A DNA stretch of 32,000 nt from Promethearchaeia archaeon (GTDB lineage: Archaea; Asgardarchaeota; Lokiarchaeia; Sigyniarchaeales; SOKP01), in assembly GCA_046497275.1 (NCBI GenBank), contig JAWOFX010000078.1, positions 1 to 32,000 on the forward strand. Reading direction: 5' to 3'. Positions 12,887-15,272 of this stretch are shown in pieces. Position numbers and translations under genes: made by a program. The notes under the pieces are model-generated. The model ran no database searches. It was not told where the DNA came from and saw only the letters and a program-made list of their open reading frames with translations. Position 1 is the stretch's first letter; every line of letters starts with the position of its first letter.

Positions 12887-13330
12887 ATGACGCCTGCAGA
12901 TAAATTGGAAAAGAAGAAAATAGAAGTTTCTTCTAAAGAATCAAAGATATCTAAGAGTAAAGTTAAAAGAGTATTATATTATATAGCAGGAACTTTTTTT
13001 TTATCCTTAGGGATTATCGGCATTATTTTACCCATTCTTCCGACCACACCATTTCTCTTATTATCCGCTGCTTGTTATGTACGAAGTTCAGAAAAAGCCT
13101 ATAATTGGCTAATTCATAATAAAATATTCGGTAAAATTATCCGAGATTATAGAGAAGGAAGGGGATTGCCTACAAAAATTAAGGTAATAACGATTATATT
13201 TTTATGGATAACAATTTTCATTTCAATTCTATTTATCACTATATTTTGGGTTCAAATATTATTAATCATCATTGCGAGTCTCGTCTCAATCCATATAGTT
13301 CTTATAAAACCAAAATCTCAGCAAAAATAA
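12887..13330 (+). CDS. ybaN: YbaN/DUF454 family membrane protein
   Basis: LGIIGIILPILPTTPFLLLSAACYVRSS...WL...FG..I signature. Confidence 0.85.
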   Translation: MTPADKLEKKKIEVSSKESKISKSKVKRVLYYIAGTFFLSLGIIGIILPILPTTPFLLLSAACYVRSSEKAYNWLIHNKIFGKIIRDYREGRGLPTKIKVITIIFLWITIFISILFITIFWVQILLIIIASLVSIHIVLIKPKSQQK

Positions 13331-13673
13331 GAAACTCTTTCTGGAAAAACTATTATTGTATCTTCAATGGTATGCTAAGAATTTCGTGTTATTTATTGTT
13401 TCAGACAAGTAGGATTCCAATATCGAATAATTTTACAATTGTAATAATATTGATATAGACTTTAGTCCTCAAACAATAAAAAAATATTTTTCTTAGAGTG
13501 GTTAAGAGTTTCGAGTTCTTTCTTCAATTAAAGTTTTTACATGCTCTGCAAATCGCTTCTCTATATTTCCGTTCCAAAATTTTTCTTAGTATGGGAATTC
13601 ATGATAAAATGAACTTTATTGATTAAACAGAGAGGGTAGTTTATAAATGAAATTATTTAAAAATGAAATCTAT

Positions 13674-13800
13674 AAAAAAAAATAACACAAGTAGTGAGAA
13701 AATTAGTATTTCTTACCAGACTTATTCTGGTCTGAAAAACCCAATTCAAAACAACTCACTACCCTAAACCCAAATTTATACCAAAAAGGTACAGATTTCT
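13674..13800 (-). ncRNA. Candidate structured ncRNA, copy 1 of a tandem pair (family unknown)
   Basis: Terminal stem GTAGTGAG (13691-13698)/CTCACTAC (13755-13762), hairpin ACCAGA/TCTGGT (13715-13731), 5' hairpin 13772-13798, TATA-like 13828-13838 upstream on the minus strand, and a U9 run (13674-13682) downstream. Confidence 0.45.
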
Positions 13801-14023
13801 GTTATAATAATCGTGAAATTTATCACATTTAAATTTAAGTGATGTAATAGTTTTTAAGAATGAGAAACATGTAGTGAAAATAAAATAGTATTCTTACCAG
13901 ACTTGCTCCGGTCCGAATTACTCAATTCACGGTTAAAACACTACAAAAACCAAAAAATCCGTATCAAAAAATTACACGGATTTACTTATTATTAAAATGT
14001 GATTCAAACCTTTTAAATTTAAA
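13691..14023. repeat. Diverged direct tandem repeat, period about 180-184 bp, two units
   Basis: Shared blocks at matching offsets: GTAGTGA (13691/13871), TAGTATT(T)CTTACCAGACTT (13704/13886), GGTC.GAA, CAATTCA, CACTAC (13757/13939), TTTAAATTTAA (13828/14012). Confidence 0.85.
13860..13986 (-). ncRNA. Candidate structured ncRNA, copy 2 of a tandem pair (family unknown)
   Basis: Terminal stem TGTAGTG (13870-13876)/CACTACA (13939-13945), hairpin 13896-13912, 10-bp hairpin 13955-13983, TATA-like 14012-14022. Confidence 0.45.
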
Positions 14024-14268
14024 CTATATAGATTATAGAAATTTTTATAGTTTACTTTCAGATCTAAAGAATTCTGTAAAATATCCTCATAAAGGTAGAG
14101 GTGAATCCAAATCATCAATTTATGAAGCTTCCTACTTTATGAAATCCAATTGATAGATAAACCAATGACAATATATTCTACTATCAATTTAAGAGCCGGT
14201 TTCTTTCGCCCATTTTTTTGGTCTTACAAAATGGATAATCTAAAAATCAGTTTATAATAAAAAAAATT

Positions 14269-14610
14269 TTATTTAAGCTTTTCAAAAAGCACTTGAAATT
14301 CTTTTTTAGCTTTAGATAATCCTAGTTGATCTAATAATTTTAAGGACTTCTCGTTAAGTTTATAAAAAGATCTATCTTCGGAGCGTTTATAATCATTCTT
14401 TTTTATGTTTTTAATTAAATTATGTTCTTTTAGTATACTGAGATGATAATGAAGAGAATTGTCTTGAATAGATGGTAACAAGGATTTCAATTGACTAAAG
14501 GATAGGGGTTTTTCACTTGCAAAGAGAGTAAGCAAAATCTTATATCGTGTCTTTTCAGATATGAGCTCTAATTCTTTTCTTAAATCTTTGTAATTTTGTG
14601 GGATATTCAT
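14269..14610 (-). CDS. Winged-helix (ArsR-like) transcriptional regulator
   Basis: RYKILLTL...LSFSQL...SLHYHLSILKEHNLI...FYKLNEK. No Cys, so no ArsR-type CxC metal site. Confidence 0.85.
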   Translation of the reverse strand: MNIPQNYKDLRKELELISEKTRYKILLTLFASEKPLSFSQLKSLLPSIQDNSLHYHLSILKEHNLIKNIKKNDYKRSEDRSFYKLNEKSLKLLDQLGLSKAKKEFQVLFEKLK

Positions 14611-14683
14611 ATGCTCACCTTTTTAATTTATTTTTATCGTTTCTTGACATGATATGAAAGTAAAATATCTATTTAAATCTAAC

Positions 14684-14712
14684 TCAAATCTCATTGAGTC
14701 AATGCAATTTGA
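14684..14712. promoter_or_regulatory. 29-bp palindromic operator between divergent TATA boxes
   Basis: TCAAAT-ct-CATTGA-g-TCAATG-ca-ATTTGA (12 of 14 arm pairs), flanked by ATTTAAAT (14671-14678) and TTATAAA (14717-14723). Confidence 0.6.
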
Positions 14713-14765
14713 AACATTATAAATTATAATAAGCTATTGGGTTTTTATTATATTTTTCATACATA

Positions 14766-15272
14766 ATGTATATTATGGAAATTTCTCATGATGATGATAC
14801 GTGGGAAATATTTTTGGATGAATTTATCGAAATATTCTCGATTGAGGGCTTAAGAAAGCAAAAAATTTTCATATGTGGATCCTATTCCAAAGAGAATTTA
14901 ACCACATTGAAAAAAATAAGGGAAGAAATCAATAACGAATCTGAAAAATATTTAGCTTTTCTCGAACTGAGCTTTAAAAAAACTCATAATGAGAATTTCA
15001 TTTTTAAATTTGATTTATTGGCAAGAATATCTGACGAGATTTTCATGGTCATCGAACATGATAAGGGAGGTCATATGATCGAATTGGGAATTATAATTAC
15101 CACAAAGGAGTTTTTAGAAAAAACGAATATATTGGTGTTAAAAGATGCTCCAATGACCCTTATGCTTAGCAGGGGCAGTCTGCTCACACCTTTTTTCATG
15201 GAAGACGAGAATCTATTTTATTTTAAAACAGTTTCAGATATAAAAGAGATAATAAATACACTCTATCCTTAA
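14766..15272 (+). CDS. Nucleoside 2-deoxyribosyltransferase (NDT)-like protein
   Basis: KIFICGS (beta-1), AFLE, LARISDEIFMVIE and GGHMIELG (GxxxELG catalytic-Glu motif). Confidence 0.65.
   Translation: MYIMEISHDDDTWEIFLDEFIEIFSIEGLRKQKIFICGSYSKENLTTLKKIREEINNESEKYLAFLELSFKKTHNENFIFKFDLLARISDEIFMVIEHDKGGHMIELGIIITTKEFLEKTNILVLKDAPMTLMLSRGSLLTPFFMEDENLFYFKTVSDIKEIINTLYP

Follow-up and report, generated by a model that had tools for sequence, protein, structure and literature searches.

Two tandem units in a Promethearchaeota genome as putative genes of a genus-restricted structured small RNA

What does a long intergenic region encode when, in place of reading frames, it carries two similar and apparently structured units in tandem? 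This question is raised by a 32,000-nucleotide stretch of a Promethearchaeia archaeon (hereafter the window), in which the 938-nt gap at positions 13331–14268 is the largest internal region free of ORFs and is flanked by a DUF454 gene (12887–13330, plus strand) and by a winged-helix (wHTH) gene (14269–14610, minus strand). Apart from rRNA, tRNA and snoRNA-like guides, almost nothing is known, to our knowledge, about the non-coding RNA of Asgard archaea. A previous inspection of the letters alone, here called the sequence-only reading, had described in this gap a pair of tandem minus-strand units, and all of the sequence features that it listed were found where it had placed them. The two units are spaced by 181 nt from start to start, are about 80% similar to each other and are, according to blastn, the only copies in their own genome (G000). 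The best explanation, which we consider probable, is that they are two tandem paralogous genes, on the minus strand and with their own promoters, for a structured small RNA of ~115–125 nt. Each gene would be served by its own TATA-box promoter, with a U9 run after copy 1, and in the folded RNA, which presumably acts in trans as a stable RNA, a short 5′ hairpin would be joined by a short U/G-rich linker to a single rod-like hairpin of ~75 nt.

The same elements follow one another in each unit: a box of the TTTAAATTTAAA type precedes a 5′ hairpin, which a short U/G-rich linker connects to a domain of 72–76 nt closed by GUAGUG/CACUAC. The TTTAAATTTAAA(A/T) boxes end 27–28 nt ahead of each 5′ hairpin, the arms of which are AAAUCCGUGU/AUACGGAUUU and AAAUCUGUACC/GGUAUAAAUUU, and in both units the closed domain contains, besides an apical hairpin (ACC(A/G)GA-loop-UCUGGU), the core AAGUCUGGUAAGAA(A)UACUA, which is near-identical in the two. 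In copy 2, the TATA-like promoter box TTTAAATTTAAAA is located at 14011–14023 on the minus strand and ends 27 nt before the 5′ hairpin, the predicted start lying near 13985–13987; this type of box recurs ahead of copy 1 and of two of the homologues described below (G006 and L116). In the MFE fold of copy 2, a 5′ hairpin of 10 bp with a 9-nt loop (13955–13983, minus strand) precedes the long rod hairpin (13870–13945, minus strand), which is matched by the covariance model R2 with 86.2 bits (E 4e-18). At the base of this rod is the helix P1 (GUAGUG/CACUAC), from which an asymmetric loop leads to a P2/P3 helix interrupted by a bulge of one nucleotide; above them are a 2x2 loop (GG/AA), an apical stem of 6 bp and a GCAAG loop. 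Copy 1 is organized in the same way on the minus strand, with the TATA-like box TTAAATTTAAAT at 13827–13838, a predicted start near 13800–13803, a 5′ hairpin of 11 positions, including one C-A mismatch, at 13772–13798 and the long rod at 13689–13764 (MFE fold, z = –3.95; R2 80.4 bits, E 9e-17), in which P1 is lengthened to 10 bp (GGGUAGUGAG/CUCACUACUU) and the loop is AUAAG. The U9 run, at 13674–13682 on the minus strand, begins 8 nt past the rod of copy 1 and 6 nt past its extended P1; it differs in length by one in a related strain and is probably an archaeal terminator serving both copies. Since only weak U tracts are present after copy 2, before the promoter of copy 1, read-through from copy 2 into copy 1 is likely.

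A hint that the units are expressed comes from RNA libraries. Contigs from three metatranscriptomic salt-lake runs, 100% identical to the window, span positions 13543–13959 and 13310–13460; they are single contigs of 151–261 nt, with a depth of 2–11 and no strand information, for which DNA carry-over is possible. Two of these contigs bridge the spacer between the copies, one extends 130 nt beyond the U9 run and one terminates at 13803, at the predicted start of copy 1, which is a weak hint only. Between 13960 and 14400 no metatranscriptome contig was found, and this gap is no evidence of silence there. An independently transcribed archaeal sRNA gene should have a TATA box ~25–30 nt ahead of its start, a U-tract terminator and a detectable transcript; here the sequence shows the predicted promoter and the U9 run, and the RNA-library contigs over the units are of low depth, strandless and with read-through.

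Is the RNA peculiar to this genome, or does it belong to a family? Five further members were found, all single-copy: three are in Promethearchaeota MAGs of the same genus (G006, G005 and the divergent G001) and two are on metagenome contigs, L116, identified by an exact-pattern scan, and L272, reached by walking from a neighbouring flavodoxin gene. The R2 scores over the members range from 59 to 100 bits. The hits of the exact-pattern scans in genome, metagenome and viral collections were mostly 18-mers due to chance, L116 being the sole new member and the viral contigs containing none, and the neighbour-guided search on the contigs of 8 flavodoxin and 4 dehydratase relatives found the RNA on L272 only. 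The samples from which the family derives are hypersaline and sediment. Overall, the family is present in four of the seven genomes of the genus, and no match was obtained in G002 (93% complete), G004 (97%) and G003 (61%), an absence suggesting that the family is dispensable or fast-evolving. Outside this genus (g1), the covariance models R1 (61 relatives) and R2 (40 relatives) gave no convincing match, and a strict pattern searched in 400 genomes of the phylum recovered the same four genomes together with three chance-like hits, the reversed control producing six. Weak matches in G021 and in G006:C5 (~23 bits) were discarded as chance-like, as was a weak match in G004, which sits inside a coding sequence.

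Comparison with Rfam 15 revealed no match at the gathering score in the window; at E ≤ 10, the best score inside the units was 18.3 bits and the loci of four other members gave nothing. This Rfam check, recommended by the sequence-only reading, was evaluated as zero matches in any member, even at E ≤ 10. No tRNA or tmRNA was detected in the window. On these searches, the family appears to be confined to one Promethearchaeota (Asgard) genus and to be an orphan, belonging to no described RNA family.

The homologues allow the fold to be examined in some depth. The MFE architecture, with each member folded independently, is identical in all seven: the 5′ hairpin is followed by a single long rod with bulges, and within this rod the conserved GAA(A)UACU strand is paired with the upstream (U)GRGUAnUUC. 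The rod comprises ~28 bp, the cores fold at –21 to –30 kcal/mol and the minus-strand folds in the window score z = –3.2 and –3.9 against dinucleotide shuffles. In the family as a whole, the base of the rod is formed by the invariant closing helix GUAGUG/CACUAC followed by an asymmetric internal loop, the middle by a long helix with one or two single-nucleotide bulges and the tip by an NG/AA 2x2 loop, a 6-bp apical stem and an RYAAG loop; in the divergent G001 the apical part differs, yet a perfect 11-bp helix, UUGAGUAUUUC/GAAAUACUCAA, is kept.

A different architecture had been proposed from the two copies alone, namely a three-way junction containing a UGAA...UUC hairpin (P2 in that scheme), in which GUAGUG would switch from CACUAC to AUACUA, as expected for an RNA of the ligand-binding or self-cleaving type. 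In fact, the sequence of copy 2 does allow short GAAUU/AAUUC hairpins, and a GUAGUG-UACUAU pairing of 6 bp is possible in five members, and with UGCUAU in L272. However, the junction-type fold, calculated as the MFE under the constraint that the conserved GAAUACU strand stays unpaired, is 5.4–10.5 kcal/mol worse than the rod in all seven members, and the switch pairing costs 5.7–18 kcal/mol and shrinks to 4 bp in G001. Furthermore, only 62.5% of cells pair in the UGAA...UUC helix, with zero double changes, in the MAFFT alignment A5, whose register is imperfect around this helix, and no Rfam ribozyme or riboswitch matched. Because the homologues fold as a rod with GAAUACU paired, neither junction nor switch is supported, and we consider this architecture very unlikely.

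The rod and the 5′ hairpin can also be evaluated by pair counts with shuffle and slide controls. In A6, a model-based alignment of all seven members fitted to the covariance model, 92% of cells are standard pairs, versus 25–48% when the partners are slid by 1–3 columns, in a sample of seven close sequences from one genus in which P1 and most of P3 are invariant and thus uninformative on pairing. Four pairs show compensatory double changes, and the covariation score is reached by at most 1 of 500 shuffles, a control that ignores phylogeny and overstates the support for related sequences; the MAFFT alignment gave a similar result. The search for homologues advocated by the sequence-only reading has added five members in which the pairing is kept, with four double-change pairs across the family. 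The upper stems of the 5′ hairpin vary by lineage (CCGUGU, CUGUACC, CUAUAU, CCAUAUAUGG and GAUUUCUAA) and are always paired, and in L272 a U-A pair near the base of this hairpin is replaced by C-G. The parts free to vary are the 5′ hairpin, P2 and a single pair of P4; almost fixed in sequence are both strands of P1 (GUAGUG/CACUAC) and of most of P3 and, among the loop bases, the G and AA at the 2x2 position and the apical AAG. Of the two arms of the rod, the 3′ one is the better conserved; the 5′ arm wobbles, with A-U or G-U at columns 26–67 and with variable bulge bases.

These data also bear on the strand and on the nature of the element. The claim that G-U wobbles favour the minus strand holds, with 4 and 5 G-U pairs in the minus-strand MFE folds of the two window copies; the seven MFE folds contain 27 G-U pairs in total, equivalent to A-C mismatches on the opposite strand, and in all seven members the sense strand reaches a lower MFE than the antisense strand. 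A putative TATA-like element is present at the proper distance upstream of every member, being least clear in G001, whose contig begins only ~60 nt upstream, and a U run lies downstream of the RNA in G001 also. The units might alternatively be a duplicated DNA element rather than an RNA gene, for example a MITE or an IS end, a palindrome recognized by a protein or a promoter left behind by a lost gene. RNA hairpins are palindromes in DNA, the plus strand of copy 1 folds well too (z = –4.7) and the loci differ between genomes, all of which would suit such an element. Nevertheless, MITEs and IS ends require many dispersed copies, terminal inverted repeats and target-site duplications, whereas here there are two tandem copies in G000 and one elsewhere, with no transposase nearby. 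In addition, the G-U pairs favour one strand in all members, the stems are kept through compensatory changes and the whole unit, beyond the promoter, is conserved over species and strains. A DNA element is thus improbable, and the MITE/IS end or lost promoter named in the sequence-only reading as a way to overturn its proposal does not agree with one or two copies per genome and a conserved whole unit. Its proposal of a novel small-RNA gene family, by contrast, gains from the lack of an Rfam match, from hairpins kept by compensatory changes, from the TATA-like boxes and from the constraint between strains.

This constraint was revealed by the DNA run of a related strain, X2, whose long contig covers copy 2 and part of copy 1 (325 bp within the units). 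Only 2 differences were found in 13726–14050 versus 36 in 14051–14400 (Fisher p = 8e-9), and 10 of the 36 flank differences fall in 132 coding bases at the 3′ end of the wHTH gene (p = 1e-4). Of the two differences in the units, the one at 13971 is in the loop of the 5′ hairpin of copy 2 and is the sole difference within that hairpin, and the one at 13776 puts a C-G pair in place of the single C-A mismatch in the 5′ hairpin of copy 1. As judged from this comparison, the units appear to be under strong purifying selection between strains, which is the best functional evidence for them.

Does the RNA depend on the genes beside it? In the window it lies between the DUF454 and wHTH genes. In G005, L116 and L272, on the other hand, its neighbours are a flavodoxin-domain gene on one side and a 4-hydroxybutyryl-CoA dehydratase gene on the other, both in the opposite orientation; in G006 an amidase gene intervenes, and in G001 the RNA is upstream of an amidase gene. 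The orthologous dehydratase loci of G000, G002, G003 and G004 contain no RNA. Next to the RNA, neither a toxin gene nor a small ORF is conserved, and no flanking gene is shared between genomes (ORFs of at least 40 aa). Since the neighbours differ between genomes, the RNA appears to be a stand-alone gene, which has been moved or duplicated within the genus.

The wHTH gene (113 aa, minus strand) forms with a gene for a 168-aa protein (plus strand) a divergent pair, at 14269–15272, that is kept in G001, G003 and G004. Pfam gave no match for the 168-aa protein, and PADLOC gave a weak one, to NDT_II-A (E 2.5e-4, 18.7 bits). The RNA could be conceived as part of a defence or toxin-antitoxin module with these two genes, either as a retron-like system without reverse transcriptase or as an RNA antitoxin: the units immediately follow the wHTH gene and share its strand, the protein has its weak NDT_II-A match and a short hairpin followed by a long one is loosely reminiscent of retron msr-msd RNA. 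The distribution across genomes contradicts this module, as the pair occurs in G001, G003 and G004 without the family RNA within ~1.5 kb on either flank, and the RNA occurs without the pair in G005, G006, L116 and L272. The likeness to retron ncRNA stops at the order of the hairpins, because there is no adjacent reverse transcriptase, either here or among the flanking genes of the homologous loci, the terminal a1/a2 inverted repeats are absent and the RNA is independent of the NDT-like gene; the RVT_1 genes of G000 are on other contigs only (C81 and C10). The module was rejected as extremely unlikely. The two reverse-transcriptase domains of G000, at C81:1063–1812 and C10:2966–3724, are contained in open frames of ~1025 aa. 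More generally, type I and type III toxin-antitoxin RNAs need a conserved adjacent or overlapping toxin gene, and the flanking genes of the family include none.

If the two units are stand-alone RNA genes, what might the RNA do? The classes suggested by the sequence-only reading, namely antitoxin, guide and ligand-binding RNA, did not find confirmation: no toxin is conserved nearby, and nothing points to a ligand pocket or to a guide segment. As a guide on rRNA, the RNA performs no better than shuffles in duplex energy against the 16S fragment of G000 (its first ~830 nt); the assembled 16S amounts to ~830 nt in G000 and ~650 nt in G006, and 23S is assembled in neither. A likeness to archaeal H/ACA guide sRNAs can be recognized in the irregular hairpins of ~70 nt with internal loops and in the own promoter. 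Unlike in H/ACA sRNAs, however, no ACA box is found directly 3′ of the lower stem (the tails after CACUAC in the seven members are AUG, UUG and, five times, UUA), the K-turn or K-loop is absent, there being no 3-nt bulge followed by tandem G-A pairs, and in place of a two-sided pseudouridylation pocket the lower loop is strongly asymmetric, with 5–9 nt versus 1–5 nt, and the upper loop is a symmetric 2x2 NG/AA. C/D box sRNAs are characterized by RUGAUGA and CUGA boxes with a terminal stem and guides of ~12 nt, and neither box is present in either unit. Outside the units, at 14053–14120 on the minus strand, there is a C/D-box-like stretch (UGAUGA ... UGAGGA ... CUGA), which matches SNORD28 weakly (21 bits, E 1.2, the gathering score being 50); its spacing is unfit for 12-nt guides, it bears ~10 changes in the related strain, with CUGA turned into CCGA, and it is probably due to chance.

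For the putative stand-alone RNA, the pattern of conservation offers an indication of function. Sequence that is near-fixed beyond what pairing requires suggests a helix read by a protein or engaged in a tertiary contact, and a protein-bound RNA is for this reason favoured. The RNA may be the scaffold of a protein-bound particle, or a molecule that titrates a protein, with its sequence-invariant helices and loops read by that protein; we propose this tentatively, as a plausible function rather than a probable one. Y RNAs, which are small RNP scaffold RNAs, are similar in having ~100 nt and sequence-invariant helices and bulges suggestive of protein recognition, but they differ in architecture, no member has an Rfam match to a Y RNA and the TROVE/Ro domain (PF05731) was found in none of the seven genomes of the genus.

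The same conservation can be interpreted in terms of base pairing with other transcripts. Regulatory sRNAs of archaea and bacteria are intergenic, have their own promoter and terminator, are lineage-specific and often occur in paralogous copies. The family resembles them in its intergenic gene of ~120 nt with TATA box, putative U-run terminator and stable hairpins, in the tandem paralogues and in the genus-level distribution, paralogues and narrow distribution being typical of this class. As a trans-acting antisense regulator, the RNA would use the conserved 3′ arm, AAGUCURGUAAGAAUACUA, as a seed opening onto mRNA targets, and the fact that this arm outconserves the wobbling 5′ arm fits such a role. 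The family differs, however, from the regulatory sRNAs in lacking an identifiable seed or target, its best-conserved segment being buried in the stable rod of ~28 bp. In the genome no complementarity longer than 16 nt exists, the long matches being in AT-rich stretches, and the near-matches given by blastn are chance-like. Moreover, this 3′ arm is not itself invariant, as it shows a G-to-A change in P4, an A-to-G change in L272 and changes in G001. An antisense regulator is therefore rather unlikely, although it is the main rival of the protein-bound RNA.

With its imperfect helix of ~28 bp, its small bulges and the greater conservation of its 3′ arm, the rod also recalls RNase III substrates and pre-miRNA-like hairpins, and the RNA could in principle be a dsRNA precursor cut by RNase III into small RNAs in a eukaryote-like pathway. 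The carriage of RNase III is unusual for archaea, and an RNase III-like gene is found in six of the seven genomes of the genus, in comparison with none of four archaeal control genomes. It is of bacterial type and encodes ~245–260 aa (G000:C9:2065–2400 and orthologues). Against such a pathway, no Piwi/Argonaute domain (PF02171) was detected in any of the seven genomes, in a search in which control genomes were matched, and RNase III is also encoded by G002 and G004, which lack the RNA, so that the presence of the enzyme does not track that of the RNA. We regard a precursor of this kind as very improbable. Only marginally less doubtful is the idea that the rod is a dedicated dsRNA substrate of the RNase III of the genus, either processed into small regulatory RNAs or titrating the enzyme; if true, it would represent an Argonaute-independent forerunner of eukaryote-type dsRNA pathways in the Asgard lineage.

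Taken with these comparisons, the tandem genes are best described as a new genus-restricted family within a known kind, the stand-alone structured archaeal sRNA. The family offers a clean and testable case of a lineage-specific structured RNA gene, in which promoter and fold are defined, seven homologues are available and strong purifying selection appears to act, and a concrete target for experimenters working on hypersaline Lokiarchaeia-type enrichments, its narrow distribution limiting the wider impact.

Two further observations regard the related strain X2. Its DNA contigs join 13347/13348 directly to 13637/13638, which corresponds to a strain-level insertion or deletion of 289 bp (13348–13637), and part of this stretch is covered by an RNA-library contig. 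Finally, X2 contig 7 (window positions 13709–13755, depth 38) carries a second copy-1-type variant, with the 3′ arm ACUACCUUCUCACUAC instead of ACUAAUUUUCUCACUAC, suggesting that further alleles or paralogues exist in the population.
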